The notes under the pieces are model-generated. The model did not search any database. It was not told where the DNA came from and worked only from the letters and a program-made list of their open reading frames with translations. Shown one piece after another: positions 6,301 through 34,400 of a stretch of DNA of 64,000 nucleotides (position 1 is the first letter of the stretch; every line of letters starts with the position of its first letter). The DNA is from Balanoglossus misakiensis (taxonomy: Eukaryota; Animalia; Hemichordata). Location: the NCBI GenBank assembly GCA_040954595.2, contig CM082592.2, positions 8,171,677 to 8,235,676 of the forward strand, written 5' to 3'. The translations under genes were made by a program, and so were the position numbers.

Positions 6301-9300
6301 GTATGGTACTAGACTTTAGCTGATTTATAGAACATCCTGAAGCCTGTATATTTTGCAAGAACTTCAATAAAAAGAACTCTCTCGAGAGAAACCACTGGTA
6401 TCGAGCCCCAGAAGCCATCATTAAGTTGTCCATTGTGCTGTAGAGCTTGCGCCATGTTTTCAATTCATAAAGGCTTAAATTCTCATGTATTCTCGGGAAA
6501 AAAACATGACTGGATGGAGTTTTTTCTTGAGGAGAGCGAGTAATCAAAATTGATCATTATCATCTTGCCTCCATTTGAACCGAAGTACCGATATACATTC
6601 AGCTTTTGGCAGGTCATAACTAATTTAAAAGGCAATTTCTCAATTGGAGAATTTGTCTCCACTCCAGGATTATTTTTGAAATTTTCTCCAAACAGCTTAT
6701 CATTTGTTTTCAATGTGGTTGTAAAAACTTTGTCACAAGTCATGCTCAGACAAGTTTGGTCTGGCTGTGGGGCCTTTTTTGGTATGTAGATTTACTTAAA
6801 GCCTTATAATTGCCTCTGGCTTTGGACAATGGTATTTCAATTGAAAACCCCCCTTTAAGACGTCTGTTGAATTATACAACATTCATTCCAGAATCAAGCA
6901 TTTTGTCTCTTCAAGGATATTGGCCCTTGGGATCGAACTCTTGATGGCCAATCTACGGAGTGATATTGTGCAACATTTTAAAGTACACGTTATAGAGCCC
7001 GGCTGATGTCAAAGCAGGTGTATCATGAATTTGGGAGAATATAAAGGCCCAGTACTGTAGCTTATAGTTGTGTGTTTGTAGTTTTGTCTTTTTACCCCTA
7101 CTATATTACTGGGTTAAATGTACTGGCCAAAGACTTGACAAGTGTCAACTATTCCCAGACGTACATCCCATCTGACTCCTGAATCAAATTCGTTGGCAAT
7201 TATTAGAGCATGGAAGTGACCACTAGGTGATAAATGCAGCGTTCCACACCAGTAGCTGCTCTCATTATATTACGTAAAACCAAGTCGTGGGAAAAGTACT
7301 AACTCTATACACACCAGTTTGTTTGCTTTTTTCAACGTAAATTGTTCTCTCTCTTTTGCCATCATGCCAAACTCTACTGTTTGTGGAAAAATAGCTGTAT
7401 GGTTCTAATAAACCAACCTACCCTAAACTGACCCTAAACTTTTTAAAGCCAAATATAAAATGTAAACATCATAATTTGCACAAGAATTAGCATGAAAGTA
7501 ACACAAAATTGCATACTGATATCCTGTCTTTTTGTACACGCAGGGTTCGGCCTCTGAACAGCCAAGAAACAGGACGAAGCGATGCAGAGTCCATCGAATT
7601 TCCAGCCGACAACTCTGTCTTGGTAAGTCAAAGAATAAACGCGTCGCGATCATAATTTATCATGCGAACAAAACATGTGTATGCAAAAATAAGAAAAATT
7701 AAAAATACATGAAAAATGTCGTGTTCTTCAAGAAACTGGGCAGACATCCGATATTCTTATCGATTCAAGAGACTGCAGGATAGGCAAACAGGTAATTATC
7801 TGATTGGGCCGAGTTATTAGGTTGAAATTCAGGATATGGGATTTCACTAAGTGTTGAATAATTAAAAAAGCGGGAATTTGCACTCAATAGACTTCCTTTT
7901 GCCCGTAGGATGTGCGTCTGATTAAATGGCTCGGAAATTGCTGCAAAAGATACAGGACTTCAATTGGCATCTGTGCATCAGGTAGCCATGTGGTGGGCAC
8001 CTGTGTTTTTCGAAATTTTCAATCATGGAAATTACAATGGGAGATAGCGCAGTGGCTTGTTGTAGATGAGAGATGAGATGTGTTGTTAGAAAGGTTGACT
8101 TTGTGTCTGTGTTCGAGGGGGAAGAGAATGGAGAGGGAATTAAATCCTCTGTTTATATTCAAGTGTTGGGAAAAACAGTATACCTGATACATTAACAGAA
8201 TTAAATTCGCCAAGTCCAGATGCACGGTGCATGACGTATATTGGCAAGCGTAAATTAGACGAGATTGTGTCCCTATAAGTCAGAGTAACGGCCGATGCAG
8301 GTTTGTTGGAATTATTTATTGAAATGTCTTAGATCCTCTGACCATTGGTTGAAATAAAAAGACTTTCGGTCATGGGGGTCAAGAATTACCTTTACCACAA
8401 TTCAAATTGTGGTTATTCTTTTAAGTTGTGAAAACGCTCCATTGAGTCAGTGTCAATAAGATTGTACAGTGAACGTTTGTTGAAAATGGCTTTATCCTGG
8501 CTGCCAAACAGAAGTTTGAAAGAGTCAAATGTGATAAAAACACTCATGGGACCCCATGTTATTAAACTCAATGAATGTTTATAATCTCCCTCGACAGGTG
8601 GATCACCAGGGAAGAAGCAAGTCTTTCACCTTCAATGCTGTGTTCCAACCCTCTGCGACTCAGCAAGATGTCTTTGAAAACTGCGGCATAAAGAGACTTA
8701 TAGAAATGGCCCTGGGAGGTTATGCTGGCACCATCTTTGCGTACGGACAAACTGGCTCAGGGAAAACTCACACTATTACTGGTCCTCTGTCAAGGGTAAG
8801 GCCCGTTCTTGTCATCAGTTGCTGAATTGGTCGTTTGTTTTCTTCATACAAGTAGATTTGTTTTGTAAAGTCAGAGGTACCTCTATAATTATTGATGGTC
8901 TACCAATATCTCTAGAGGATTGTAATTATCATGGAAATGGGCCCATTAAATTGTGAGTGTTCTGTGCAAGTATTGATAAAATGGTTAACGGATGAAAATA
9001 ATCTGAACACACTACATATTGACTGGGCATGAGGGTAACAGCATACATCTGTCGACCTGAGATGATGATGATAATGATGATGACGATGATGATGATGATG
9101 ATGATGATCGTCTTTTCTGTTGACATTGCAGGATGAGCCTCCAAATCCAGAGGTGTTTGGTCTGATACAGAGATCGTTTCAGTATCTCTTTGAGAAAATT
9201 AAACAGAACACTGATGAAAATGGCATCTCATACACACTGTCGGCATCCTACCTTGAAATTTACAATGAGCAGGTAAGGCTGAGGTGCTTTTCAAAATTTT

Positions 9301-12300
9301 CTTCGAGAATTCATGTGTCTAATTGTTTTGAATTTTTGTGTGAAGGTCCCTTGGGGTGATCTAAGTCAAATTTGTTGAAATTATGACAGAATGTGCATTA
9401 CTCCTGAGTGTCTGCGTTGATGCGTTGCAGGTCAAAGATCTACTTAACCCCTCCGAGAGGAGTAACCTTGGAGTCAGGTGGTCCAAAACCAAAGGATTCT
9501 ACGTGGAAAATTTATTTGTGGTGGAGTGTGAATCCACCGATGATCTCATGGCCGTCTTGGAGGAAGGTGAGGCAAATCTCCATTTCTGAGAAGAACAAAA
9601 TGAAGTCTTCATATTTTAAGGATAAATACAAGTAAATGATACTGTTCTTCATCATTAATGCTCCAAACAACAAACCACGTGCACCGTGTAACATTACGTG
9701 CAGAGTTCCAACTGAAGCAAACACAGGTCAGATGTTCGTCCCAGCCACACTAGATATTTGACACGCATGAGTGATGTCATCTAATCAACAGTCGTGAATG
9801 CCATTTTTGGTTTGCTATGTCCATGACTTGTTATACCTTGTAATCTGATGTCAAAATGGGAAAATCCCCGCCCCTGGCATCGACTAATCCCTTGTCACGT
9901 GTACACATCCAGGTGGGCTTGTTGCTTGGAAACTGTGTATGTCAGGTCATCAACAAACTCATCGGCATTTTTCAACTCTTCATATTGGTCATCCTGCCTG
10001 TGATAGGGTCATGAGGTCAACTCTTTGGTGGATGATATTGTTTGCTTGTTGTAATGAACATTTTGATGGATTTTTACTCACTTGAACCTAAGTCTGCCTG
10101 ACATGTTCATTATTAAATGTTGAAACAGGAAGCTTTTCATGTTGGAAACAAATGTATGTGGCACACAACTGGAAAACTGTAAATTGTGTGAAACACAAAA
10201 GTACTAGTAATTAAGGCACATCCCTGTCTAGAATTATTGTCACCATCTCACCCCCAGTCCACAGTGTAGAGGTCTTCTTTGGGCATTGAAGAATGCTAGT
10301 CACCTTTTTATACAAGATTCCTCAGAGTTTGAAAATTGACGACAAACAAGAAATTGGCCTTCTGTATTGACTGTTACAAATAGCACGGTAACTCAATCGC
10401 TCCAGCCGTTTACACGCAGAGTGTGCAGGATGGAGAGCGTGACTGAGATATTGAATGGTAGTTTGTAAAAAAAGTAATCAGTACCCTTCATTGTGCCACT
10501 TAAAAAAAAAAGTTGCCATCCGAGATGGCGTATCTTTTGACATGCTTTGGTGCTCCTAAACGGGGTCACTGCTCCCCGGGGCAGTTTGTCGGCTGGTGCG
10601 CGTCCGAAAAAGAAACGGGTAATTGAAAGATTTGGTGGGCGGCTTACACTTACAGCTTAATTTAGTGCCCAGGTCTGACAGGGTTTACCGAGAATGGCCG
10701 GCGTGTTTCCTTGGTGATCAGAAACAAACATGATAGAAGTTCATGTGCTTCACAAGGACATGTCCAAGTTGGCAGTGGTCTAGCTGCCACACGCACTCAC
10801 TCACGCCTACACACAAGGAGAACACAAGTTTATGGCGATGTTTACTGCCGGCAGTAACAGTGTTTATAAACTTAGTCTACCAAATACAAGGGTCAGTTAC
10901 TAAGTGTGTTTACGTATACAGGAGGTAAATAGCTCCCCCCCTGAAGTATTAATTGACCCTGTAGTTGTATATGCCAACTGTGTAATACCAACCTTATCTT
11001 TGATCTACATCAGTGTAATGTATAAAGTTTAAGCAGCGCAGTGATTGTTTTGTTTTGATATATAGCACTGTTATGCCAAACAACCGTAGTATTTGACAAT
11101 GCTGGATGCGTAAACACGCCGAATTGATCCTTGTAACAATTATACCAAGTTCAAAAAAGATAAAAACAATTCTCTGAAATTTAAGGTTCTGAATTTGCGA
11201 GATTTATCTTTCTGTGTGCGGGAGGGGATCAGTTTCTGGAAACGTTCTCGTAAATATTTGTCGGGTCTGTTAGAATTTTTATGGGAGTGGGTAATGGTGG
11301 CACTTGCTGACCTGAGAGAGGTGCTTAAACAAATATTGAAGGTACAGTAGCTGTGTGGGAGGGGGATTAAAAAAAACATGCGATCTTCTCTAGCTTGGCA
11401 TGCCAGGTTGTGGCTTCTACCATTGTGATGTCAGTATAGGCACAACTGCAGTTTGTGCAAAGAAACGTAAACATGTTATCTGAACTGATTAGACATATGT
11501 GATAGTGCCTAAATTATAAAAGACGAACTTGATTAAAAGATATTAGCTTAGCTTGGGCACAAAGCGAATGTCGGTCATTTTAATGTAGTCAAGCGGTGAT
11601 CGGGCAGAGTTAATAATATCTGGTGTGATGTTGACATGAAATTCCTTCATATCGTTGAAATTTCAATTCTTAAATCTTTTTTTGTTTTTATAGCAGAAAA
11701 AGACAATTGATTTAGAACAGGAAATAAAGTTATCAGTTGATCCCTTGTTTCATGATCTTTGAACTCATCAACTCCTTGGCTTCCTGTTTGCCGATGAAGT
11801 ACATTAATCAACAGGTGGTGGGGGCAGTGAATATATACACATGTAGCCTAGCAACAAATGCCGGTATATACACACGAGGAAGGTTCCCAGGTGTACTCAG
11901 CCAATCAGAACATCAAAGGATGATAATGATGATAATGGTGATGAAGAAAAAAGTAATTTTTTCAAGTGAATTTTTGACTGCGGCTGAGATTGACCACTCA
12001 TGAACGCCCCGGAATGCAGAATATGTTGATATGAAGTGCCTCAAGTGAATAATCAATGGTGCAACTAACCCTGTATGTCACTTTGTCGGATTCATAGGGT
12101 ACCTTTGACTTGCAACACTCATCAGGTACATTTAGCACTCACAAAATTGAGTCATTTTAGGTCACCTCTCTCTCATCAGAATGAGTTACTCGACAGAGAA
12201 TGACAACCCCTCTGCAGCCAGTGCACAGTGAGACCGGTATTTGAATCGATATTTGGACGATTTCGTCAACCCGGGTAGCGTGGTCACCATGGCGATTTGA

Positions 12301-15300
12301 AATGACAATGCATTTGGGGTGAAAGGTCACTGCCATTAGCCCAGCGGATGATCCCAGATGTACATCTTTTTCCCCATTGTTGAACAGAAAGGGTTGTGTT
12401 TTGATTCCACTTCTTCCTGTTTGAAAAGGGCGCAAATATTTAAGGGCGAGGTACATAGATCTGTTTTCGTGCTGTCAGTAAACTTTGATTTAAAATATGA
12501 AGTTATTTGCCAGAATGGTGCATGGATGTTGTTTAATGTATTTTTAGTTAACTCGTTTCCTGACAACTGGGTTAAGTCTTTTACTGGTTCATTGATAATA
12601 GACCTCACTTTGGTCTGTTATTTGATAAACTTGAAATGAAGTGGATTTGGGACTTAGCAACCAGAGTAAACAATTGTATGACCCCCCCCCCCCTCCATAT
12701 TCTCATATATGTCAGTCACCTAGATTCAGCACAGTCCTGGTGGTCAGAGTTCAAAGTTCACCAAATAAATCACCTGCGGTGTGTTGTTTTACGCTGACGT
12801 CTCGGTGAAGTTGTTGAAGTGGTGAGTACCATATAATGTGTGGCGGAATCCGAGCAAAATACAGCTTAATTATGGTGTGTGGTTTCAGAGATGCGATTGA
12901 GGGAGTTTTCATCACTGCGCTGTGATTGATGAAAGTTTTTGATTTGGAAATCTGCTGTTGTACAGGCAATGTTGAACTGTCAGAATGTACTTCTCGTCAC
13001 GACATCAGTTATTATTCTGGTGTACCGTAGTTTTCTTCAATATGACAGGATGTTCGCGCTTAGAGGTGCAGTCCTCAACTGTCCAGCAGATAATCCTATA
13101 TGTTCAATTCAAAATGACGAGAAACATACATGGATGCAACGCAGGTGCCCAAATTGGTCGATTGAGATTTGTAATTGATGTCTGGTAAATGTGTTGTGAT
13201 CGATAGACCTTTGTGGTCTGGTCGTTTTGCATTGCGACGCCCGAGGGGAAGACAGTCGACTCGAGGGGTAGCTGGAATTTGGTTGTTAATTGTTATCACT
13301 CTGACATCCAAATCTGTTTTCACTATCATTTTCACCGTTTTGTTTAATGGATGTAAAAGTTCAGCGAAAAGTAATGTTTAGAAAAAGTGTAAGCCTTAGA
13401 AGATTATTGCCGTCACTCCGTCAGTAAAGTGCAAAAGCACACATCAGAAAGTCATTCATCTGACCACAATAGTTGTTGACCGTGCATTTAGAATCCTAAT
13501 CGAAGATTTGATTTGCAAATCCCAAGTTGAAAGATGTGTTGTGTGCAGATACACACCTGTTGTTCAGCGTGGGCTGCCACGGCAACTGACACGCCTGATT
13601 TACCCGTGCACACTTTTTTTTTCGGAAGTCCAACAAGACAATAAAGAAAAGAGCTTTGTGACTCGCTTGTATCTTCTTTTCAAGTCGGGATGGTTACTTC
13701 TTCCCCGAGGTCACATTCTGGTATTGTGTCTGTATAGTTTGGGCTATTGTGTCTCTGGAGGGGTGTGATCATTGTCGGTCCCCCTTGGCTCCTAATTTAA
13801 CTACAGCCCACAAATCAGAGGTCCAATCATGCAGCACACTGTGGTTGGCAAGCAATCACCTTAAATACATGAACCAAATATAGCACAAAGAACTGACAGA
13901 TTAACCTACAGATTTCGAACTCATTTAAAACAAGCGTGGTGTCATTTGAGGTCAGGGTGAGGACCACCTGCCCTGCCAAGTTTTTTTTTGGTTACGGGTC
14001 ACCCTAATGTTCAATGAAATTTAGGTAGCACTGCAAACTGTACAGACATCACAATATGCTACCTGAATTTAACCTTGACATATATGGGGGAGTGTGGTGG
14101 AGGCACACTGTAGGCCCCCTTGGCCGTTTCCTAGCTACAGTGTGTGTGTTGTTGTCCAGCATGGAGGAATGATGTAGTCCATGTGTCAACATTGCAAATT
14201 GAAATACCCTACAGGTGATACCTGTTGCCGGCAGCTGTGTTTGAAAGACGAAAATCTTTGATATGTCGAGAATGTGACAGTGCCAAGGTTGTTCAGTGTG
14301 TAGTGCATATATGCAGTTGTGTTGCACACACATGAAGAATTATTTTAGTGTAAACTGTTACCGTGGGTATTTCTTGGATGGAGTAATTCCTGAGAATTTC
14401 CAATACACCCCCTCACCCCAATTTTCTTTGTAAAAATGGTCTAGTCTTGAATCACTGAAAACATGCAAGTAAAATCAGAGTACTAAACCTGGAAGGGGTG
14501 AAAGCAAAGAACAGCAGAAACATAATTGATTCAAAATAAAAAAGTGAACATGATTTCTTTGTGCCCATCGAGGACGTAGATGAATACTGTACTATGCTCT
14601 TTCCATAATGAAGGTAAATATGTACTGATTGTGTCCGTAAGTGACTTGATTGATTTTGTAATCAGAAAAATTACAGACACTTTGAGGTTTTCTATTTTAG
14701 GTATAGTGCATAAATTTGTGTTCAGTTTAAGTTAGGAGAGCAGTATTTTGTTGTACAGGCAATTAAGAGTCACAGGTTTTCTTTAATAGTCTGTTAATGA
14801 CACAGCCATTGCCCATCCTTGCGGTTGTCTTCTGTGTGTGTGCATGCGGAACGCACAATGAAAATGTCAATACTTTTACCTGTAAGCTATTGGCAGTAGC
14901 CAAGTGGAAAACCAGGCGAGTCCCATTTGCATAGGGTTACGTAACAACACTTAGCTTCCACATTTGTGATTAAAAGAAGTTGTAACCACAATAACTGAAA
15001 ACTGGACACATACGTGGATGAGGGGAACCTTCGCTGAGTCATCATCTTTCTGTCTTTCTTTTTTAAAGTCAAAAAATGAGTATTTTTGGTCAGTGACTGC
15101 CTGTCATTGTTTTTGGCTATTGTTCTGTTTATCGATATTGTCAGGTAACTAGGTAAGTGTTGTGCCTTTATTGATTATTCAAAACACTTGGCTTGTTGTA
15201 GTTGTGTTATCGGGAGAGTCACTAGTGTCTGTGTGCGTTCTGTGAAATAGGACACTGTTTTTCTTTTAACTTTTGGATGATACTTTGAAAAAAAAGCATC

Positions 15301-18300
15301 TTCGTTCATCGTGAGTGGTTCTTCAGCTGGGAATTGGATGGATACTCATACCTCTAGGAGAGCGGTGATTATGATGTTAAGATGAAGACGTTTTTGTCTT
15401 GATGCCATCAATACTTAATCAGTCAATGGCGTGAACTGTTTGTTGCATGGTGTGGTTGCAGGTAACTCGATCACCTAAGGATAAGGACAGAATCCGATAG
15501 CAGGCAACCATTGCTCCAGGATTTGAGTGGTGAGACTCTCGATTTCAATTCAAGACAGGCTGTCATGATTTTCAGAAAAGAATCACCAAGAGTTGACGTG
15601 TGGGACTGTATTTTGATTGTTCTGCACCATTGGGAGAATCATGTTAATGACATTGTAAACAGAACCACTGACTTCTACTTTCTGGAATGAAACTGAGAAA
15701 ATGACAATTACCTGCAGCCAAGAAAGAATTGATTTCAACTTATAACATTAGAAGATAGTGAATTTTGTTTGATTTTTGACCTTGAAGTTGTCCAAGATGA
15801 GTTTTCGAGCAGCCCAGAGCGATAAGCTGTATGAGAGAACGGATTTCTGGAAGAGCGTGGCGGAATTCGACGAGGAAATGAAACAGCGGAGTGACCGACT
15901 GGCCCGGCAGCTGGATGAGGTGCTGCGGGCAGATTCCAGGATGCTGACCACCCGGCAGGGGGATCGCAACAAGGGGGTTCTCAGCCCCAACAGCTTGGCG
16001 TACGAGAAGCAGAGGAAGAGACGGCTGGAGCAGATCGCGGAGAAACTGGAAGAGAACGACGTGAGGAGGACCAGGAACAGGAAGAGCGGAAAGGTGAAGA
16101 GCCTTGAGACGGGGAGGCAGAGACAGAAGAGGTTGGAACAGATCACGAGCAATCTGGATAGTCTGTTGATAGCCCAGCGTGGCAGCGATGATAAGAGCGA
16201 CGATGATCTCTATGTTCCGGCATCCAAGGATTCCCGGAAGAGCAGCTCGCGGGTCGTGGAAGACGAGTCGGTCAGGGAGAGGAGGATTGAAGACATCGCC
16301 AAGGAGTTGGACAGTATCTTCCAGCGCACTGCCACACAGCTCGACATGAAAGCCGGCGCGGGCGTTCCCCGAAAGCTCTCCGTCAATTCGCAGGAACGGA
16401 TTGCCAGTAAAACGTCGAGCCTCTCGCAGTACTCGCAAGGGACGCGGGCGACCAAGTTTTCGCAAGAGCTGGCGGCCATCAACGAGAACTCGACGGACAA
16501 CTTCCAAGCGAGGATGTCCAGTAAACGACAGGTGAGTCCAGAGAGTGCCCGGTACGACAAGCAGCGGAAGAGACACATCGATGATGTCGCGAAACAGCTC
16601 GGACTCGAGCAGGGCAGCGAGGACAGGGTGTCCCGCGTCCAGGAACTCATATTAGGTGAGGAGCAGACGGGACAGGACAAAATTACGAAAGGTACCAGTC
16701 CTATGAGCATGGAATATGAGACTCTGAGGCAGAAACGCATCGAGGAACTGGAGCAGAAGTTCTCCGGTGAGAGCGATTACAGGGATCTGATCAAGGAAGA
16801 AGGCCCCAAGAAGACCGAGAAGAAGCAGAAAGCGAAGGAAAAGCCGAAAGGGAAAAAACCGCATTCGCATTCGCACAGCCACGGACAACATCACTACCAC
16901 CATGCTTCGCACAGCAAGCTGGAGGTTCCAAAGGGCAGGAGGCCGGCCAAAAAGGTCAAATCGAAGATTCCCAACATCAAATCGCCGCGTCTTGCTGAGG
17001 ACGACTGGTTCAAGAAGTACGACTTCTTTGATTCCAGCGACACTGAAGATAACTTGGAGGCAGGCTTTGACGTCAGCAGCGAGGCGGAAGATGGGGAGGC
17101 CGACAAAATCGAAAATGGTGGCGCTGAAGAAGATGCTAGTGATGATGACAATGATGAAGATGATGAAGCTAAGAATTTCCTCGCCAATGTGGAGCAGTTT
17201 TACCCCAGGAATAACACATACGATCCACAGAGGATACACGTTGGGGACACGCCGCTCGTTCTCGGTAAAAACAAAGGAGTCTCCGTTTCCCGGGCGATGA
17301 GTATGAGTACCCAGGATGCTGGAGTACAGACCGTGCCGGAGGTCTACTACTGCTGGGCCAAGACGGAAACCGGAGAAATCACTGGGCCGTTCAAAATGGA
17401 ACTCAGCGATATACAAAGGAGTTCTAGGGAGTTTGTCGTCAATTTTGTTGGCACGGATAAAGTTCTTGAGAATGTCAAACTGGCAGATATGCCTAGGCCT
17501 GGTGGGTTGATAATTTTTTTTTACTAAATTTGCTTTTACAGATGGTGTGTTTTCTTGTTTGGTGTTGGTTATTATAAAATTCAGCACCTTTACCATGGGA
17601 TGTGAGTGAGACTATCAAGCTTTGAGAAAATTGTGCAAATAAACGTCAGAAAAAAATGACCTGATCTGACCTGAGAGCCCAGTCAGGTCAACACTGGTGA
17701 TTAAAGTTAAAATTAAAGATGCCTGATTCTTCTTTTTTGTAAAGAATAAAAGTATTTTCAGGCTATCCCTGGGGTTAATGTCTGGACTGAACAGCTGTGT
17801 TTTTGTCTGTAATCTGTAAATCCTACAGCATTTGCTGTGTCAAAAGTTTGGATTTACGAGTCACCACTGCTAATGATGACCTGGAGTGGTTGTAAATGCC
17901 AGTGGATTTCGATCCAGTTTGCACAGCATTTAAATTTTAAACGACACTAGCCAGATGTCAGGCGGGTTAACAACCGAAAGTGGATCATCAGATTAAAACT
18001 TTAATCTTTTTTTTATCGTCGCTGAAAATGAAAAATCCCTGGAGTGTGATAGAGCAAATCTGAGCTAGGAGCGTCTGACACATACATGCTGGTGTAGATG
18101 AATTTGTCGAACGGGATCAGAAGATTAATTAAGTTCTTCAAAATATATATTCCACAGTTGCTCCTGAAGCTCAAGGTTGGGTAATCTGAATTTCCCGCTG
18201 GTTTCCAGGCGACTCCTGGCAGACCTAGAAATTCCCAAATACATGTTGGTCTTGATCAATCCAACCATACATCCGTCCAAATCTTGGCCAACAATACCAT

Positions 18301-21300
18301 GGCTAATCTCATTTTTATTGCAAGACACACTGAATCAACACCAGTTGAGCTGGTACCATTCACAGACTTACAGCAAGTATTTGTTGAATTTCTTATCTTT
18401 TTTCGTAATGGGTACTAAGTTAATATTCATTTTTTTTTTCATAGGTATAAGTCACCGACAGACAGGCAGCAACAACATCAATGAACATTCCAGTCGCAGT
18501 CATAGTATGCTGTCTTTGTTCATAGACAGCGAAGTGGTGAGTTCTTCATTTTTTCATCTTGATTTGATACATCTTCAGTTTTATCCCCAGCTTACTCCAA
18601 CATGGTTCCCTTCCCCTAACATTGTGTGTGTGCGTCCGTGTATGTATCTATGTGTTTGTCATATGCGTGAGTGTGTTAGTATATGTCCACATTCACCTCC
18701 TAACATCTGTATATTGACACAGCCACTTTGTCTAGTCAGATCAAAACCATAATAAAAACCAATTGTACTCCTTTCCTCTGCCCTGAAAGTCCAACCCCCC
18801 AGCCACTAGGAAACATCAATTAAGCTAACAGCAACAACTAAGTTACATAATGTAATAGCCAGTGTACATAAATAATTAATGTCGCTATTTCTTTTAACTA
18901 GGGGGTCATATTTTATTTAAGGCTGTGCTTAAAGAGGTTAAAGATTCCCAGTTGTGGTCGTAAAAATGCTACTTGTCATTTATACCGATTGATAGGATTC
19001 TTCAAAGTGTCAAGTAAAATTTAATTGCGTTTTAACGAGTCGTAAGTGTTTTGTCCTTGGTAATTACTGCCTCTTATAATGTTCTCATAATAGCTAAATT
19101 TATATTCTGTTAAATATTTGCGATGTGTCAAAAACCAAACCACTTGTGGTAATTCTGAAATTTGATTTACATGGGATAAAAAAGTTGCCCCAACTAGCCA
19201 AACAATGCAAAAACGGTCTGGCTCCTTCCTACTGGCAATAAACGCAGCTATGAATCATCATTCTAATCAATTAGCGACTACCGCAATTTGCACTGGCTCC
19301 CATTGAACCAAGGTCAGCGAACAGGTGGTTTTTGTCCACCGTTCGACGAGGAGAAAATATATCAGCGCCCTCTAGTGGTTGTAGTTGAGCACGATTACCC
19401 ATATGCGGTATCCAAGCAACTGTGGGCAGTCAAAATATTTAGAATGTTTGTCGACCTACGCTATTTGTAAGAAAACTGGCATTTCTTTGAAAAGTAAATA
19501 GTCTTAATAGTGTGTAGTTGGAAGCGAACAATGAAGAACCGTTCAATTTATATTACTGTCAGTTTTGTGTCAATGACGCAGATTGTTGCGTAACCTGCAG
19601 CCCCCATCCCTAGTTTGTTTTTTTAAAACAGAGCCAGTTGACACAACGTGTTTAATCCTCACATTTGCTTCTTTCACTTTCATTTTAGATGTTGTGAAAT
19701 ACTCGTACATGTACACTCATTCTCTAGTGGCCCGTTGATTGGTTGCAGCCCTAGTTCAGTGGTATTCACTGTGACTTCATTTTCAAAGTATTGACAGAAT
19801 CACATTCAGGCGAACAATGATAAGGCAGCCATTAATGTCAATTGTTTGACACACTTATTTTGATTCAATTCAGCTGCAATCAGTCCGTTTTTTGAGATCA
19901 GAATTGACACCAATTACATAACATGAAATTTGTAAGCCTCAGATATGTTTTTCAGAATGATACTATTTATCTAAGAGATGTGGATTTTAATCAATAATAT
20001 AAATGACAAGTGCTATCTCTGTGTATATTTTTCTGTGGATTAAAATAAAACCATGTGGGGTATTCTTTGAGGAGAGAGTGTTAAAGCTGATTAATTTGCA
20101 GGTACCAGCGAATATGTCGCTCAGCTGTCTGGACATCTGGTAGAGGCATAGACAGTACTAGTATCTACTGCCTGTGGTAAAAGGAAAATATGATTTTTGT
20201 TGTTATTTCAAAATGTAAGCATTAACAAACCTTGTTGCTCCTTCTTCAAGGAGTAAGAATGCTCCTAGTATGGTGACATTATGTGATTTCCTTCATTTGA
20301 TATATGAGTTTTTTTAATTTCTTGACAACAGCCTGATCCAGATGATGACGCGTTGTACATCACCAAGCAAGGCAAACTGAGTTTTGTGGACTTGGCCGGG
20401 AGTGAGAAAATCAAAGAACTTGGAAATAATGGTGGAGAGCTACTGACGGAGACTACGAATATAAATAAGAGTCTTCTGACGTTAGGTAGGTTTATCTGTT
20501 TTTGAAGTGATCCTTTCTCTGTTGTCTTTGGATGAGATCAAATCATGGAAGTTGGTATTGGATAATCAAAAAAGAGATGGTCATTCTGAAAATCACTTAT
20601 ATTTTATTTTATGTGCAGGGAACTGTATATCTTCACTGAGTGATCCAAAGAAAAAAGCTGGTTACATTCCGTACAGAGACAGCAAGTTGACGAAGCTGTT
20701 GGCAGACAGTCTAGGTGGCAGTGGGGTGACGCTTATGGTATGTTTAACAATGCTGTCCTGGTCTCCACATAAAAAAGTCAGCAAACGGTGATAGAGATAA
20801 AATAGACAACTTGCATTTGCGGGAGATTCGAAAGTTGTTTACAGTTGTGGTGGTTGGTTCTGAAATCCTTGTGTGATAAATCTTTAATGCCGGTTGATTG
20901 AGAATTTTCACGGTGTCTGATTCTGTTCTCTCTTTCTTTTCTGCATACCAACAGATCGCATGTGTGTCACCATCATCATACAGTGTACCCGAGTCTATGA
21001 ACACATTGCGATATGCAAATAGAGCCAAGAGAATTAAAAATAAACCAGTTGTCAGGATGGTAAGGCAATGTTTACTTCTTACGTTTCGTTTTGTTGTTTT
21101 CGAACTTTGAACTAAGCAAGTTTTTTTCTATTCATTAGAAATGTTTTAGAAGTATCAAATGATGGACACAATTGTGCAGAATGTCATGTTTCCGTGTATT
21201 TCTTTCAAATATTGCTTCATTTTGAACCTCGCCACATGGGGGCGCTCTTGCCACCAGGTCTGCACCAAACTCTCCGGAACTTGATTTTGTTGTATAAATT

Positions 21301-24300
21301 TTCCAACAGGATCCTAGGGAAAAGCTTCTGATGAGCTTGAAACGAGAAGTGAAGCTGCTGCGATCGGAGAACGAGTATCTGAAAGGCCACCTCAAGAAGC
21401 CGTCCGGCGGAGAGTCGAAACAGAAGGAGGGCAAGGCGGACGAGAGCTCCTTGAAGCACGCCACGACTAACGGCCACATACCGAACGCAAACAACTCAGA
21501 CAGTGATGGGCCGGTGCAAAAACCCAAACCCAAGTTGGAGAGGAAAGCGAGGGAAAACTCGACCAGGTCAGATCAGGGAACTCTTTCCCCTAAATTAGTA
21601 ATATTTGTACATCTGTTTATATAAATGTAGCAAGCACATCACAAATATGCAGAGTACAATCAAAAGCTGTGACTGCATATCAAAGTCCATGCTATGATAT
21701 AGTCAAAGATGATTTTTACTGCTCATTACTGCAGAAAAATGAATAAATGAATTCCATCATTGAAAACACGAAAAAAAAAAATTTTTATTTTGGTAATTCA
21801 TATTGTTTTCTGTAGTGATAATAATGTTCTTGTTCCATTTTCCTTGACAGCTCGATAAGTACTAGCCTCAGCATGAAGTCCGCCGCAGACAATGGCCTGT
21901 ATGAGATGCTCCAGGAGTACATGATTGAAAATGAAAATTTACGCTCGGAGAACAATGAACTATCCTCCACCAGACAACGGGCCAGGAGAGAACACGAGTA
22001 CCTTTCGAAAGAAAATGAAAAACTGGGAAAGAAACTGGAAGACTTGGAAAGGTGAGACAATTTGTTAAAATCTACTTTTGAGGGAGGGGGAGATTATTTT
22101 AATATAGCCACAGTTACCATGGAAAGTTGAGATCTAGCCAATCACAGATTTTGATTTTGTGGTCAGGTGAAAAAAAATTGCACCACCATTTGAAGGCTTA
22201 GACATACCCTTTTAACTATATATGAGCATAATGGTGACTGTGTACCTTTAAAATGTTGATAGCGTTGATGTCAAGTGTAATTGGTGATTAATTTGTTTGT
22301 TTCAGAGTTATGGCATCCTCACCGCTGTCATTTGCGAGGTACAGTTTCTACAGTCGGGGCAGTTCAGGGAGGTCTTCTCAGCCCTTGGCGCTGGCAAGCG
22401 TGACCTCATCGTGGCGTGCAGAGTCCAACACGCCCGTCTCACAGCAGCAGTATCAGCAGCAAGACGCCCCTCTGCAGCCTCTGCCGCAGCAAGGGTTCAC
22501 GCAGCCGCAACCGCAGCAGTACGCACCACCGCAACAGCCGACGTCGTCGCAGCACCAGCCCCTACCTCAGCAGCATCCTCACCAATATCAACCCAACTCA
22601 TATGCACCGGCAGCTGGGCCCGTCGCCACCCAGCAACAACCGCCCTATCAACCGTTTCCCCAGCAACAGCCTCCACCACCACCTCCTCCTCAGCAACAGC
22701 AGCAGCAGCAGCAGCCGTTTCCACAGCAACGAATCTCGCCGAACAACCCCATCCCGGCCGGGCACACCAAGAACGGGCCAAGCCGCCAACCACCGCCAAA
22801 GAAACAGGTGAGCCTCACCCATTGGATGATTTTGATCATGTGACCAGAATGCAGCAATTTCATTGGAATACACTTTCCTATGTCAAGTCATTGAGTGATC
22901 AAGTCTATGTGGCCTGTTGACCCCTGGTTAGTAAAGATATTCCTTTTGCCAATCAATAAATCATCTTGGAATACCTGTTTACAAACAATTTTATCCTCCA
23001 TTTCACAGCTTCATGAGCTTCCACCTGTAGACAACATGAAAGGAGTCCCCAACACGTACAAAGTGAGCAAACAGGCTCCATATCAGCTTCAACAGAAGAA
23101 CAGCAAAAACAAAATATTGTAAGTACTGATCGCAGAGTCATTCTCTGAGCACTATTTTGAAAAGACGTGGCAGTTTAATACTTTGGTACAAAAAAGAAGA
23201 CATGAAGATAGATTACTGGTAATATGTCTATTCACTGCTGTGCAACGGAGACGTCTATGTTTGCTGAACTAACCCACTAACTGAAAGTTTCTCTTCTGAA
23301 AGAATATAGAAAGAATTGTAGTATGGTAGCTACATCATAAAAAAAAGTGCCTTCTTGGTGCAGAACTAACCAGCTTTGTTTTTCTTCTTCTCTGATTTTT
23401 CATATCGTGTGAATTAAAAAAAATGATACTTGGTAAGTGTGTAAGATTTGACTACTGCCCAGTGGATGCTAGTTAATGCTTGGATTTTAATAAAATAAAA
23501 ATAAGCAAGTTTGGTAAAAGTGAGTGCTTGTGGTGGCAGGGGAGTTTCAGCTGAGCTCATCTGAAGTATGTTTCACAGAAATAATGCATGACTCACCAGT
23601 TAGTGAAGTTTTCACTGGTAACTGCAGCTATTGGCTATAATTAATGGTGGGTCAAAGTTGGTTAACTGTGATCCCCAAGGGTCATGGTGAAAGATTATTC
23701 CAAGCTTATAACACCCAGTATTGGAGCAGGCTTTCTTTAATAGTATAATTGCTAAAACGCTTCAAAGAGTCCAAGGTGTCGTGTCAGTTGCCAAGAGTTC
23801 AAAACCTGAGAGTTAACGCATTCTATATTTTAGAAAATATATGGTAAACTTCATTTTCATTTTTGATTTTTTTAGAGGTTCTAACTCAATTTCCGTTTTT
23901 GTGTTGTTGACAGGGATAACAGCCAGAAGAGTCAGGATCCCCATGGAAGTTATGTAGACAGATTTCAACAACAGCAGACGTTCAATAAACTCTATGGACC
24001 CGAGCAGGCTACCACCTCCCCTCGACAATCCAAACAGGCAAACATCAATATACCACCAGCTAGAGGCCTGGAAAGGAGAGGTAAGATTAAATTGTTTGTC
24101 TTTTTCTCATCTTAGAAAGTTGGTAATCTTCTTAATTATATCTTCCTAGATAAACTCAACTCAGATAAAAGTATCTCTTCAGTTTATTTTTATCAGAAAG
24201 ATTCCTCAACTTTACATTATAGTTTAACTTTTTCCATTTGATAGATTAAAACAGCTTCATTCAATAAACATAAGCCTCATTTTTTTTCTATTACAATAAA

Positions 24301-25452
24301 AGTTCTACAATATTTATAATTTCATTTTTATTTTATTTTGTAATGAATGCATTTATAACCTTGCCTCATTCCCTTTCTTCTGTCTGTCTGTCTGTCTATC
24401 TATCTGTCTGTCGGTCCACCTATTCACTCATCTCCTTTCCATAGATGAATCTCCAGATAAGAGCATAGACCATTCTAAATCTAGTCCACAACACCCTAGC
24501 CATCATCAGGGCTCACCCAAACAACAACAGGCCGCTAACGCTCGGAGTAGTGAAAAAACGCACGCCAAACACGGCGAAAAGAAAGCAAAAGGTGCCCGTG
24601 GGGAGAAAGGTAAATAGAGGTCAGAGGTCGCAGGCCCCTTATCGCCCCACCCCTGGTAAGGTGTGTGGGAATGGCAGGAGATATTGTCTATCATCATTCA
24701 CCGTCCAGACATCCCCCAAAAATGGATCGGAGCCTGACAATACATTGAAATGTGAAAGCTGACATGATCTTTTCACTCAGTAAATGTCAGAAAACGTTCG
24801 AGAGTCAATTTAAGTTTTAAAATAGAAATGATGAGACTTGTTAATCCTGTGGTAAGTTTATTTGTAACAACATGAACAGTGTTATAATCGCACTGAATAC
24901 TTGTCAATGATTTTGTAATGTCTGATTTGTTATCCAGGTGTTGATCCATCATTGGATGCAATCCCACCAACGCCCACAGCCACGCCACCACCTGTGAAAT
25001 ACACGCCCAAAGGAACGCATCAGATGTTGCAGAGCTCTTCTATCGACATGGCAAAGACCTCAGCCAGCTCTGGTAGGTCACAATATCAGTTTATTAGCGT
25101 GTTGGACTCTAGCCTCACCATTGTATGCAATAGGATTAACTTGAAAAAAAATAATTGTATGGACATGTATAAATGTGTGTGTGTATGTATGTATCTATGT
25201 ATGTATGTATTATGTCAATATGTAAATTTTTCATGTAACAATTCTGATCAAATTCAAGCTAGTACAGTTTCCTTGTCACGATTTTCATATTTTCATCATC
25301 ATTTTCTAGGAAACTGGAACCAAATCAACGACAAGCTGCGACAGGAACTGCAAGAGCTGGACGGCGAAATAGAATACATGAAATACATGAACAAATCACA
25401 GGCGTCTTCGGCTGCTCCACCCAAACCGGCTCCTAGAACCCGGAAAAGATAG
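400..25452 (+). CDS. KIF12: Kinesin-like protein KIF12 (kinesin-16 type), ~971 aa, 18 coding exons
   Basis: Exons joined with GT-AG and consistent phase: 400-536, 2354-2428, 7544-7622, 8598-8795, 9132-9272, 9431-9566, 18445-18536, 20332-20485, 20619-20737, 20955-21059, 21310-21566, 21851-22051, 22306-22807, 23009-23118, 23914-24080, 24445-24609, 24938-25072, 25310-25452 (2916 nt, divisible by 3). Motor motifs: NVNVVVRVRP, P-loop [21 protein letters not shown], switch I NEHSSRSH, switch [25 protein letters not shown]12-typical segments: [33 protein letters not shown], coiled coil [18 protein letters not shown]-rich tail. Start ATG and tail exon boundaries are less certain than the motor exons. 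Confidence 0.9.
1738..1751. promoter_or_regulatory. X-box (RFX-binding)-like motif in KIF12 intron 1
   Basis: GTTACCATGACAAC matches the X-box palindrome GTTNCCATRGNAAC; similar motifs at 911, 2797, 4744, 9921, 10705, 12283 and 22113. Confidence 0.55.
5485..5612. repeat. Degenerate minisatellite, ~31-34-bp unit x4, in KIF12 intron 2
   Basis: CCCTAAGCTATTGTTCTTTCTTCCCC-like unit at 5485, 5519, 5550 and 5581. Confidence 0.8.
9061..9108. repeat. (GAT)n microsatellite, imperfect
   Basis: ~16 GAT-like units ending just upstream of the acceptor at 9131. Confidence 0.9.
15797..17527 (+). CDS. Large ORF nested in KIF12 intron 6; probable alternative first coding exon (15797-17501) of KIF12, or a stand-alone ~576-aa protein
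   Basis: Open from 15776 (first ATG 15797) to TAA 17525-17527, GC-rich against AT-rich flanks, natural-looking charged protein. CCTG|GTGGGT at 17501/17502 is a phase-1 donor matching the phase-1 acceptor at 18445. The codons after the donor are T-rich and intron-like (GLIIFFY*). Confidence 0.75.
   Translation: MSFRAAQSDKLYERTDFWKSVAEFDEEMKQRSDRLARQLDEVLRADSRMLTTRQGDRNKGVLSPNSLAYEKQRKRRLEQIAEKLEENDVRRTRNRKSGKVKSLETGRQRQKRLEQITSNLDSLLIAQRGSDDKSDDDLYVPASKDSRKSSSRVVEDESVRERRIEDIAKELDSIFQRTATQLDMKAGAGVPRKLSVNSQERIASKTSSLSQYSQGTRATKFSQELAAINENSTDNFQARMSSKRQVSPESARYDKQRKRHIDDVAKQLGLEQGSEDRVSRVQELILGEEQTGQDKITKGTSPMSMEYETLRQKRIEELEQKFSGESDYRDLIKEEGPKKTEKKQKAKEKPKGKKPHSHSHSHGQHHYHHASHSKLEVPKGRRPAKKVKSKIPNIKSPRLAEDDWFKKYDFFDSSDTEDNLEAGFDVSSEAEDGEADKIENGGAEEDASDDDNDEDDEAKNFLANVEQFYPRNNTYDPQRIHVGDTPLVLGKNKGVSVSRAMSMSTQDAGVQTVPEVYYCWAKTETGEITGPFKMELSDIQRSSREFVVNFVGTDKVLENVKLADMPRPGGLIIFFY
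19363..19381 (-). promoter_or_regulatory. CTCF-like motif
   Basis: Reverse complement reads CAACCACTAGAGGGCGCTG, a close match to the CTCF core CCASYAGRKGGCRS. Confidence 0.6.
24379..24411. repeat. (TCTG/TCTA)n microsatellite
   Basis: tctgtctgtctgtctgtctatctatctgtctgt in the intron upstream of the acceptor at 24444. Confidence 0.8.
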
Positions 25453-29092: not shown

Positions 29093-30967
29093 TTATTTAC
29101 TTTGTTCTTCCCTTGCATTGGCTCGTTCTTCCACGTCGACGATCCCGATGTTGCGGCTTGCGATGATCAGATGCAGGACGCTGATGCCCGCCTTCGCTAT
29201 GGCAACCGGCAGGCAGATGTAGAAGAGGAGTCTCCAGAATCCGATTGAGAAGACGATGAAGGGAACTGTCAAGATGCAAAATGGAGAATCTCGAGTCAGA
29301 GGTGGGAAGTGCGAGCCTGTTCAAAGTGTGTGATGTGAGATTGTCAAATCTGCAGTTTGGCAGCCTGGTTGAGGATTTATGCTTTATAGGACGAAGTGGC
29401 AACTTTTTACATATACACTGTAAAAGTCAACAGTCAGTGATGATGTCACAGAACATTTGCCAACAGTAAGTGATGATGTCATATAAATATGTGTAGATAC
29501 TCACTGATTGGTCCCTCTGTGAAGTACATCATGTACAGTGACACATAGCACAATTCATTTCCGCCACACATGAAAAATAACACAGGCTGTAAAACAAAAG
29601 ATGCAAATTCTTTATTATTCGATGGATCAAATAACTGATTTCCCAGTGAACATTACATCCTGCATTGCAAAGGTTAGGTACAGTAAAGTGTCTTAGACAG
29701 TATACTGAGCTAAGGTTACAATCCATCAAAGTTTCAAACAGAGAAATTGACACCTACCCTTGATGTGTAGTACAGGCGCATTATGGGATTTCCAGATGCA
29801 TCTATCTTTTTGTGGCTGGTCATTCCGATCATATTACAACTGTAATAGAGGTCAGAGGTCAGTAATGAATTTGGACTTTATGCTATCGTTTGCAAGTTTG
29901 GACAAGGTCTATATAACACATCATGCATTTCCTTACCTGTGCAAATGCATCCAGTGGCAGACGACGTCGATCGCCATGCTCATTTGAAAAACGAACATCC
30001 ATTTGGGATACAGGTGAGCCAAGACGACCATCAGACACATAGTGGCCGCTCGGTCCGTCAGCTGGTCCAGCATTGCACCAAACTTTGTAGCTGTTGGGCG
30101 AAGGAAGAGAATACGGCTTAATTTCCAGTCCACAGTTTGTGTGTTTATGTGTGCATGGTTGGTTGTGTGTGTGTATGAAACAGTCACAGTGTATTTGACC
30201 AAGAATGCAGGTCATACTAAACCGAATCGCGTCTAGTTGATTTCTGAGAGGACATTGATGGCTCTGATACTCACACTGACTCAGCATCCTGGCAGCATGT
30301 CCATCAAACGCATCCAGGAAAGCACTAAGCACGTAACAGAACATAGCAAGTGCATAGTCTGTTGGCATGTACCAGAATGATATAATATTGAGAATGATTC
30401 TGGCATACCCTGAAAAAAGGCAAAAGATACAAAAATTACTGAGGTCAGCAACTATAGCTCTTCATACAACAGTGTGCTTTTCAGATTAATAGCAATACAT
30501 ATCAGAATTAATGATAATAATTTTTATCATTAATATAATGAGCTTCACATTGAGCTTTGAATGACAGCTTAAAAACTGATTAAGTTTTTTCATTGCAATT
30601 ATAATCACTGTGATTGCATTGAGCATCATACAAGCACTGTAGTGTATGTACAAAACTCAGGTACACTGTATGTTGACATCTGTGAAATTGTTGTCATAAT
30701 ATTTGTCAACAAGCAGTTTTGATCGATCTCGATTTCTCCATATGTGTCAAATTCAACAGCAATTTATCACCTTTGCCCACAAGTAAAACCCTGATTTATA
30801 CAGATAAGCAAATCAATGTATGCAAAGAACCGTGATCAAGGAATAAAACGTTCCTAATTTCCACTGCACTGTCATGTCAATATCGGAAGCCATGGAATGG
30901 ACATCATGCAACCATGATGCAACTCACCTATGATGTTTGGAACAAACAGAAAGATATTTTCAGACAT
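29093..30967 (-). CDS. CDIPT: CDP-diacylglycerol--inositol 3-phosphatidyltransferase (phosphatidylinositol synthase), ~221 aa, 6 exons
   Basis: Exons (minus): 30967-30928, 30409-30275, 30090-29937, 29839-29758, 29586-29505, 29265-29093 (666 nt). MSENIFLFVPNIIGYARI; CDP-alcohol phosphotransferase motif LDAFDGHAARMLSQSTKFGAMLDQLTDR; SHKKIDASGNPIMRLYYTSRPVLFFMCGGNE. Confidence 0.95.
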
Positions 30968-31437: not shown

Positions 31438-34400
31438 ATGATGAGCGATTCCGTAGATTTTCCGCTTGAAAATCGCCGTCTTGCTTTGTTGCTCGCACGT
31501 GCACTTAGACAGGCCGACGCCGAGAGATTCTTCACTGTGTATGACGACATTATACCGCAAGATTTACCCATAACACAGGTAATACTTTCAGTCAAGTTTG
31601 ACACGGAGCGCTGTACGCTCCTGCCGTTGTAATGCAACTTTGTATGAAACACATTCCTTCTGCGGCTTCCGCAGTCATTCTCGTCGCGGACTTGTCGTTG
31701 CATGTATTTCTCTGATATACAATAGCGAATTTTGGACTTTTTCTTCGTTTTTCTGTATTATTGTTGCGGCCATAGTTTTAATTAGTTGTAGAGTGACACA
31801 GGTTCCCTGCTTTGACATTATTTTGATGTTTATTGCATTGAAATATCACTCAGCCACTCGAACTCGTCGCATCCCGTCTGCTGCAAAAACCAGGGTCGTG
31901 CATTAGTCTGCACCGCGTTTTCTATCTGCAGCTGTCGTGGGGAGAATGCTTTCATACATGGCTTTATAATTTCTATTTCTAAAATGACCTGAGTAAATCA
32001 TGAGTAAATACATGTAAATTCTTTTCGGGCGCACGCACCGTTATATGCGTATTGATGAACCTGGCAAATTGTACATAGAAACCACAATGCGAAACGCCAT
32101 CACAAGCCCGTGGCCTTTTGACCCAGCAGGCTGATACGTAGAGCTGACAGCTGGCGTGGTGTGTCATGCGCTTTCCATCTCACAGTCCAGGTCTGCATAC
32201 TGCCCTTGTAAAAATACCTTCACCACTTCTCTCCGCTGTGAAAAACCATCCACTAGTAACTAGTAAGGAAATGTACATTCTTATTGTAATACTGTGTTTT
32301 CTGTTTTAAATTTGAAAAAAAAAGATCTATCTTTCCTTTTAAAATTTTTTTGCTCAGTGATGGTTGGCTGTGGATGTTTGAGTATTCAAGTCATGCAGCA
32401 GACATAGTTTTCCATATTGTTGATCTTCATCATGGTTGAATTTGATTGAGTTACATTCGTATGCGATGTCTTTTGCCCAGTGAAGATAATCGTGATTAAT
32501 TCCGTCTTGTAAATTGGGTCGCAGTGATAACGCTGGATGCACAGTCGGTTTTCAATTTGTGGAGAAATACCCAGCGTCTCACTGTGGAATCGAGCATTCT
32601 ATCATTTGGTGGAATTTTTTCCACCATTGACTAACAGGCTGATCAACATGTTAGCTATGTGCAATGGTATTTGGAGTCAGTATTGGGCATATCCAAAGGG
32701 CAGCCGTCATGTCGGCCTTGTTGAGTTTCAGACTTTTTTTTTGCTATCCTCCTGGGTTATAACGAAGCAGTACAATTAATTAAGAAAAGTATATAGTGCT
32801 TGTATTTACCGACAGTTTGTGCAGTGAATGCTTAAAAATTTGAACTAAACATGCAAGTTTCCCTAAACAGGAGTAATGCTGGCCTTTTTGTAGTTTTGGA
32901 TTGTTATTCATCAAGTCAAATCGTATTCTAAATTTAGAAGTTTTATCATAGAATATTCTTGTTTATTCTTTTTTTTTTGGAATGTGTTTTGTCTCGCAAG
33001 TGTTTTGGCAAGTTTTGTCCTTTTGGTCAACTGGGCTTTGATACCAGTTGACAGTTCAAATGCTCAAGGTTGAATCTGCGTATGGCCATAATTGATATCT
33101 TGGTAATCTTGTAAAAAATCAAACAATAATTAATAACAACATCGCATATCCTAATAATTGCAAAAACAATTAAAATGTGGGAGAAAAAAGTGATGCAGGG
33201 ATAGGATCCTGATTCATCATGAATCATGTGGGCTTTTTTTGCAACTTTGTGGGTCTGAAACCATAGAAACCAACTTGGAGGGGAATGTAAACTTGTCAGA
33301 AATACAAGATGGTGGCAACAGTTAAGTTTACTTTAGAGGATGGAAACAAACAACATATCGTCTGTGTCAATATGAGTCACCACTGAAGCAAAAAAATACC
33401 ATTATTACATGTTTATACAGAAATGTATTATACATTTTCTCAATGTCAAACAGGCTTGATGTTTCGAAAACCATGTGTGTCACTCAGGGTATATCGTACT
33501 GTAAAACAAAATTTCAATGTCTCAATCAAAGAGCCTTTGTGAGTTCTTTGCTTTTTTATTTGAATTTCAGTAGCAGGCATTATTGTTTTAGTGTTCATTC
33601 AATCCAATAAGAGACCACAGAATGACCTTGTACGTTCTTTACTTGTGTTGAATTATTTTTTTGATAAACTGAATAGTGTTTAGTCGTTGGTATTTACTGG
33701 TTCGTCAGGTAAACCTGTGTCAAAGCAGATGTCAAATTTATATTCCGCACGCAACCACCGACATGGTTATATTTATTGACCTCTTCTCTATTAATAACCT
33801 GCACATACCCTGGCAGACATATCCACTCATTATGTGGTTTTACACACAACTTTAGTGTCACGTCTGATGCATGGAACAGACAGGCATTTTTATTTTGCAC
33901 ATAGACATTCAATGTGTTTTGAATTCTTGTCAAAAAAATGTGTTTTGCAAAAACGGTTAGTGTCAGCTACAGGTGGATGGTTTATGGCTAATAAAATGAA
34001 TATGGAGCAGTGACAGTATTGCTGACATTGAAAAATTAAACTTTACAGTGATTTTGTATAAAAATGCTGCTTTTTGCATATTTTCTGGCAACTTGCGTTT
34101 CAGGTAATGCTTAAAGGTATACAGTCGCCTCTTATTTACATTTATGTTATGTTTTTTTTCCCCCGATTTTTTTTAGATTGAAGCTATCAAAGAATCAGCC
34201 CGGGAGCTGGCAGACCTTCCGCAGGAGGAATTCCGGGAAAAGGAACAGATTTACATCAGTATGAACTCTGCTAATGACCCGGTAGTGGACAGTGGGCTAT
34301 GTAGCGTCAGCAGCAACAGTAGTCTGCATAGTCAGGATTACCTAACTGAGGAAAGCGACATCTCCAGAAAAGGAATAAGACGCGCAGATTCCTTGAGTAA

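Follow-up and report, generated by a model that had tools for sequence, protein, structure and literature searches.

A giant open reading frame in an intron of hemichordate KIF12 as a candidate first exon of a kinesin isoform without the P-loop

The kinesin gene KIF12 of the hemichordate Balanoglossus misakiensis harbours in its sixth intron a giant open reading frame (ORF) that very probably serves, judging from gene models of related loci, as the first coding exon of a spliced isoform devoid of the ATP-binding P-loop. We analysed it in a stretch of 64,000 nucleotides (contig CM082592.2 of assembly GCA_040954595.2, positions 8,171,677 to 8,235,676 of the forward strand), called the window below, to which all coordinates refer. 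The ORF ends at a phase-1 donor and continues, once joined to the downstream exons, as a frame of 1284 residues; the P-loop and strands beta1-beta5 of the motor are lost, and a conserved motif of 26 residues stands ahead of the join. The splice onto exon 7 is supported by gene models from 28 species, and a form of KIF12 that is likely motor-dead probably arose before the split between protostomes and deuterostomes. Regarding function, we see about even chances that the ORF is an ancient alternative first coding exon that turns KIF12 into an ATPase-dead, motor-less scaffold or anchor, dimerized by its coiled coil and docked by the motif, a predicted beta-hairpin. KIF12 is a poorly understood kinesin, and its loss leads to childhood cholestasis.

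The giant exon and its counterparts in other species

The host gene comprises 18 coding exons (412-25452, plus strand) separated by GT-AG introns throughout, and its full-length product has 967 residues. This protein is ~85% identical to its counterpart in Ptychodera flava and 74% and 65% identical to the KIF12-like proteins of Glandiceps and Saccoglossus, respectively. The named matches of the C-terminal motor half, shared by both forms, are mostly KIF12, and some bear other kinesin names. From these identities and names, the locus appears to be an N-terminal kinesin motor gene with KIF12 proteins as its closest relatives. The first exon of the P. flava full-motor isoform X7 differs from those of Glandiceps and of the window (412-536), and the region upstream of KIF12 may thus contain further alternative starts.

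Intron 6 (9567-18444; 8878 nucleotides) contains a frame that is open from 15773 to 17527, i.e. 584 codons from stop to stop, with an ATG at 15797. When the stretch was shuffled 1000 times at constant base composition, no ORF exceeded 302 codons, and the longest one per shuffle averaged 146. A preliminary description of this DNA, made from its letters alone, had proposed that an ATG-led segment of 1705 nucleotides (15797-17501) leaves through a GTGGGT donor in phase 1, the same phase as the exon-6 donor, and joins exon 7 at 18445 in frame to yield a P-loop-less isoform of ~1284 residues. These elements were confirmed in the sequence: the giant exon followed by exons 7 to 18 forms an open frame with a single terminal stop, and the gene models of P. 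flava show the same join. The donor at 17501 scores 8.6 bits with a matrix built from the gene's own donors (leave-one-out), whose scores range from 5.6 to 10.8. Stronger donor-like sites are found within the ORF at 16531 (11.0 bits, phase 0) and 16655 (9.2 bits, phase 1), and the choice of the 17501 donor is therefore based on the comparison with P. flava rather than on its score alone.

The giant exon was also said not to be a cassette, which our analysis bears out. None of the eight AG sites above 3 bits between 15600 and 17501 lies in the phase that exon 6 requires, and trial joins of exon 6 with four candidate acceptors run into a stop after 5-24 codons. In-frame inclusion after exon 6 can thus be ruled out. 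The donor-like site previously pointed out near 15153 indeed has a strong consensus (Table 1).

Outside of the motif, the giant exon is lineage-specific and predicted to be disordered. This N-terminal arm is charged and poor in hydrophobic residues, comprises ~400-1460 residues in complete models and can be aligned among close relatives only. Two of its features had gone unnoticed in the preliminary description, namely the conserved motif at its 3' end and five helical repeats (Table 1). The repeats are also present in P. flava, and a search of 16 N-termini from molluscs and nemerteans found none. A His-rich run (SHSHSH...HHYHH) at 16855-16915, with a basic and then an acidic flank, is kept in P. 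flava as well. We rejected a transposon-derived ORF: no transposase or RT domain was found (no Pfam family at the cut-off), there is no inverted repeat beside the exon, and its position is orthologous across phyla.

Using the last 137 residues of the giant exon as a query, one protein was returned among 134 candidates, P. flava XP_070573072 (1260 residues). The start Met of the two proteins corresponds, their 572 aligned residues are 69% identical, and the P. flava protein enters the switch-I exon at the same Gly. In four successive parts of the exon, identity is 74%, 73%, 60% (the acidic middle) and 81% (the last 88 residues). The P. flava RefSeq isoforms X1-X5 (XP_070573071-75) represent the P-loop-less form, with the same start and the same join. 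Isoforms X6-X7 (XP_070573076-77) have the full motor and are identical to X1-X5 for 500-704 residues past the join. The shared half motor is conserved at 151 of 157 residues (96%) between the window and P. flava; as its exons are common to the full motor, this conservation is uninformative on its role in the isoform.

We searched with the shared half motor and classified the best 120 of the 420 matches that passed. A P-loop is present in 98 of these and absent from 22. In 21 of the latter, a foreign N-terminus extends up to a Gly 15 residues before SSRSH. A P-loop-less model of the sea urchin Strongylocentrotus was rejected as a member, being a plain N-terminal truncation with normal sequence before the join. 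The listed matches, the members of their clusters and a further homologue search made up a set of 256 stored proteins. Sixty-six of them combine the motif with the half motor and have no P-loop, 49 are exon-only ORFs with the motif, and 121 are full motors without it; the others are one Physella model with both P-loop and motif and 19 fragments or pattern misses.

The 66 proteins come from 28 species, i.e. P. flava, 17 bivalves, eight gastropods and two nemerteans (source names, counted by hand), such that 27 molluscs and nemerteans add models with this join to the RefSeq ones of P. flava. Counterparts with the join and motif of the window include XP_041349655 (Gigantopelta), XP_064619151 (Lineus) and XP_022337119 (Crassostrea virginica). 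Among the listed matches, 16 of the 28 species also have a full-motor model, several of them with an identical LOC number, and KIF12 of the other 12 is represented by the motor-dead form alone. The best isoform of each species with a matching full model is identical to it over 373-704 residues past the join. In these models, the isoform is thus a product of the same gene as the full motor that has no nucleotide site and keeps the coil and tail. In databases it goes under such names as 'uncharacterized protein' (P. flava), 'homeobox protein 2-like', 'trichohyalin-like' or 'KIN-14R', and its recognition explains many misnamed proteins. Ostrea edulis X4 and C. virginica X5 are shorter isoforms whose first Met lies within the giant exon. 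Four RefSeq accessions correspond to the single protein of O. edulis X4, hinting at several upstream non-coding exons in oysters.

Unspliced sequences inform on the exon itself. In oyster and mussel clusters of the Logan/ENA assemblies, 47 motif-bearing ORFs (a redundant set) run in one frame up to the junction Gly, which they meet where the start of the isoform would place it, and then diverge into short tails. A giant single exon is therefore common to them. The tails past the Gly are of 7-33 residues (seven codons in the window, 9-33 in the six oyster and mussel ORFs measured) and are unrelated between genera. A metagenome scan for oyster loci gave 140 pattern matches, none of which was confirmed. 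The taxonomic range described here is a lower bound, because the profile of a third homologue search, for other phyla, took in a whole oyster protein and was swamped; that search added three gastropods only.

The conserved motif and the remaining half motor

The motif was first spotted by eye. It was then turned into a 48-column profile, for which 20 proteins of molluscs and nemerteans were used and hemichordates were left out. Searched against all six frames of the window, it matches residues 515-540 of the giant exon with an E-value of 3.6e-6, the next best match being at 0.85. The consensus is Y-x5-T-x2-G-x3-G-P-[LMF]-[RKQ]-[LFM]-[DE]-[IVL]-x-D, located at the 3' end of the exons, 1-56 residues ahead of the join. 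The Tyr, two Gly and Pro residues are invariant in the 23 aligned rows, and the Thr is found in 22 of them. No ordinary full motor among 160 stored proteins matched the profile with an E-value better than 5.

The motif has no match in Pfam or among PDB sequences and is thus a sequence module absent from Pfam. An origin by duplication, whether from exon 6 or from the half of the motor that was lost, was rejected, as no profile match was found (probability under 1% for the lost half). A likeness to the GYF hairpin was also considered; Pfam gave no GYF match. In the ESM Atlas, the Gigantopelta motif in its kinesin context retrieved kinesin clusters at 0.80, which we treat as a lead only, and the exon-only protein of Mya gave no usable match.

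Without the P-loop (GxxxxGKT/S), which is lost with the skipped exon 4, a kinesin isoform cannot bind ATP in the manner of kinesins. In nine P-loop-less proteins, the kinesin motor family PF00225 is covered only from about positions 159-186 to position 327 of 327. Switch I (SSRSH) and switch II (DLAGSE) are present. The preliminary description also held that the isoform keeps the L12/alpha5 microtubule-binding face; these elements are indeed there in the sequence, but two AlphaFold2 runs did not recover a fold of the half motor. For the P. flava motif, half motor and coil (23 sequences), the mean predicted local distance difference test score (pLDDT) was 47 and the predicted template modelling score (pTM) 0.22, with a beta-hairpin on the motif at pLDDT 52-59 and a confident coil. 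The model of the whole Pecten isoform (26 sequences) gave pLDDT values of 60-77 for the motif strands, 31-58 for the half motor and 82-92 for the coils. Taking both models together, the half motor lies at pLDDT ~31-58 with pTM of 0.22-0.30. Given the shallow alignments and the absence of a full-motor control, these models do not prove that the half motor is unfolded.

A two-chain prediction with the P. flava motif (43 residues) and half motor (163 residues), run without alignments or controls, gave no answer, with a score of 0.00 in both runs. Foldseek found no match of the P. flava model in the PDB at an E-value of 0.001 or better. A VIA wide search with the Pecten model retrieved generic coiled coils only (Z up to 6.6) and barely covered the hairpin.

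Layout of the window

Table 1. Features of the KIF12 locus in the window
Feature	Position	Strand	Remarks
KIF12 coding exons 1-6	412-536, 2354-2428, 7544-7622, 8598-8795, 9132-9272, 9431-9566	+	N-terminal motor half; not in the alternative isoform; ~85% identical to P. flava X6/X7
P-loop GQTGSGKT	8745..8768	+	Within KIF12 exon 4
Donor-like site GTAAGT	15153..15158	+	10.6 bits; candidate end of an upstream non-coding exon
Giant exon, putative alternative first coding exon	15797..17501	+	568 codons + 1 nucleotide; charged, few hydrophobic residues, no Pfam family
Five repeats of ~19 residues, R/K-rich, R-[LI]-E-x-I core	15998-16054, 16106-16162, 16259-16315, 16550-16606, 16712-16768	+	Predicted amphipathic helices
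Conserved motif, exon residues 515-540	17339..17416	+	Predicted beta-hairpin
Phase-1 donor GTGGGT	17502..17507	+	Same join used by P. flava X1-X5
Unspliced read-through	17502..17527	+	7 codons to TAA (17525-17527); not conserved
Shared exons 7-10	18445-18536, 20332-20485, 20619-20737, 20955-21059	+	Switch I, switch II, L12/alpha5, alpha6, neck linker
Shared exons 11-18	21310..25452	+	Neck coil, second coiled coil, Q/P-rich tail, C-terminal helix

The window also contains parts of other genes. A CDP-alcohol phosphatidyltransferase exon (29883-30461, minus strand), presumably phosphatidylinositol synthase-like, faces KIF12 tail to tail. Another giant open frame (37803-39872, plus strand; 689 codons) has a raised GC content and no Pfam family, and is probably a large exon of another gene; a frame of 223 codons at 34177-34848 on the same strand is similar to it and likewise belongs to no family. 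Further along are an ankyrin-repeat gene (45198-50000, minus strand) and a BCL7-family exon (52830-53273, plus strand). Finally, two long BTB_2 ORFs of the KCTD type (55843-56622, minus strand, and 57313-58233, plus strand) are arranged head to head ~700 bp apart, each with its BTB domain within one frame.

Possible roles of the isoform and known systems

As a scaffold or anchor, the isoform would be driven by an internal promoter and would pair with itself or with full-length KIF12 through the shared neck coil. The conserved hairpin would dock on a fixed partner, and the long charged arm, specific to each lineage, could act as a spacer or provide a binding region. As for the half motor, it would be mostly a linker, inherited from the exon layout of the gene. 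KIF12 tails, together with any full-length motor partnered with the isoform, would then be held at a fixed site and not transported. The hairpin is the part kept specifically for the isoform, and we therefore favour this role over the other explanations considered below.

A number of observations weigh against an ancient scaffold or anchor. When the whole exon was searched against 1.84 billion representatives, P. flava was the sole match. The link between hemichordates and molluscs consists of 26 residues (21 bits), and nothing else in the exon can be aligned beyond close relatives. No motif-bearing model was present among the listed matches for echinoderms, amphioxus, chordates, annelids, arthropods, cnidarians, Glandiceps or Saccoglossus, which may reflect loss, divergence or missing annotation. 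In one Mya model the giant exon is a stand-alone gene, and Physella acuta XP_059144272 has the P-loop exons and the giant exon in one model, probably a merged prediction as its bridge resembles unrelated filler. The support for the splice join comes from gene models, and the 47 motif-bearing Logan/ENA proteins listed are all unspliced. Gene finders tend to fuse a long intronic ORF with the next exon. Lastly, the steady place of the motif could equally mean that it acts on the half motor itself.

Some of these observations would suit a nested single-exon gene that ends within the intron, with the fused models as gene-finder artefacts, an explanation that we find quite improbable. The preliminary description had raised it on account of the TAA and of two AATAAA hexamers, of which the first was found at 17638 as reported and the second at 17745 instead of 17744. 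The unspliced proteins and the stand-alone Mya model are in keeping with it. There is also a precedent in the fly gene Klp54D, which we take to be the KIF12 orthologue. FlyBase split off a wrongly fused exon of that gene (PMC4528329), which calls for caution with fused models. However, AATAAA occurs 62 times on this strand of the 64-kb window (~1 per kb) and, being at background density, carries little weight. The tails past the Gly, unrelated as they are between genera, further weaken the idea of a separate protein, and all unspliced oyster and mussel ORFs have a Gly at the join, as predicted by a G followed by GT. Moreover, the same join is modelled in 28 species by RefSeq and several GenBank annotations, in 16 of them beside a full-motor model, and alternative isoforms in RefSeq normally require transcript support.

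If the isoform is real, it might mainly be a dominant-negative competitor that takes up KIF12 monomers and tail partners, its N-terminal arm merely setting location or stability. We consider this unlikely: the coil and tail are wholly shared, and headless Myo10 offers a parallel as a reported negative regulator produced from an alternative start (PMC7702012), but simple competition requires neither an arm of 400-1460 residues nor a motif kept between protostomes and deuterostomes. Another possibility is that the half motor is complemented by the hairpin, either on its own or within a dimer, to form a small head that has no catalytic activity and attaches to microtubules independently of nucleotide. 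Full-length KIF12 paired with it would gain a foothold, much as Kar3 does from Vik1 and Cik1. The motif is always close to the join and is predicted as antiparallel strands, which by kinesin topology is the type of element lost beside beta6; alpha4, L12 and alpha5 remain in the retained half. A truncated human variant is expected, as an expectation only, to keep microtubule binding (PMC11914266), and the non-catalytic Cik1 or Vik1 head can set processivity and speed (PMC4338441). Yet the motif has no profile similarity to the lost motor half, the linker is variable and of low complexity, and beta1 and beta3 of the core sheet, by the same topology, are missing. The low-confidence half motor of the AlphaFold2 models, with their 23-26 sequences and no matched control, likewise gives no support for a rebuilt head, and we regard such a head as doubtful. 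It is similarly unlikely that KIF12 has, from the last common ancestor of protostomes and deuterostomes onwards, encoded its own non-catalytic partner, the hairpin remaking a nucleotide-free microtubule-binding head in a heterodimer like Kar3-Vik1 obtained by alternative exon use.

A scaffold or anchor thus remains our preferred role. If the motif is orthologous, the retention of a P-loop-less form across the protostome-deuterostome split would imply long selection for a motor-dead KIF12. One exon and one motif of 26 residues provide a precise handle for tests in oysters, mussels or snails. Among the papers searched (most subscription papers lay outside the coverage), none described the invertebrate giant exon, the motif or the isoform, and the available parts of bioRxiv 10.1101/2025.06.27.662005 and PMC6611504 contain nothing on isoforms. 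The isoform is probably an ancient and apparently undescribed headless type of motor with a new conserved module.

In mammals, the KIF12 tail has a motor-independent scaffolding role, and the part that KIF12 plays without its motor is an open proposal (PMC11914266). The same paper mentions a human KIF12 variant without the N-terminal motor, NP_612433.1, that is expected to be immotile and proposed to be a scaffold. Its transcript, NM_138424, is without exons 1, 2 and 4 and makes a minor contribution in liver (0-0.54 fragments per kilobase per million mapped reads; PMC10813742). The variant numbering there implies a coding start 414 nucleotides (138 codons) later, which we would place past the P-loop and upstream of the join studied here. 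It thus resembles the window isoform in belonging to the same gene family and in missing the N-terminal motor and, by this deduction, the P-loop. In contrast, those texts describe no large new exon for it, and homology of the two forms is not established.

Headless Myo10 is a plain truncation and is not known to have gained a large conserved exon at its N-terminus. It derives from an actin motor and its function has been tested, whereas the KIF12 isoform is known here from sequence. Like the proposed isoform, it is a truncated, motor-dead form of a motor gene, with an internal transcription start and a mass of 163 kDa versus 237 kDa (PMC7702012).

Yeast Vik1 and Cik1, partners of the kinesin-14 Kar3, are kinesin-related proteins that neither bind nor hydrolyse ATP and that pair with an active motor (PMC4338441). 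They are encoded by separate genes and have a globular motor-homology domain, whereas the window isoform would be a splice form of the same locus that retains the C-terminal motor half only, with no confident fold. Through the shared coil, the KIF12 isoform may plausibly pair with the active motor as well.

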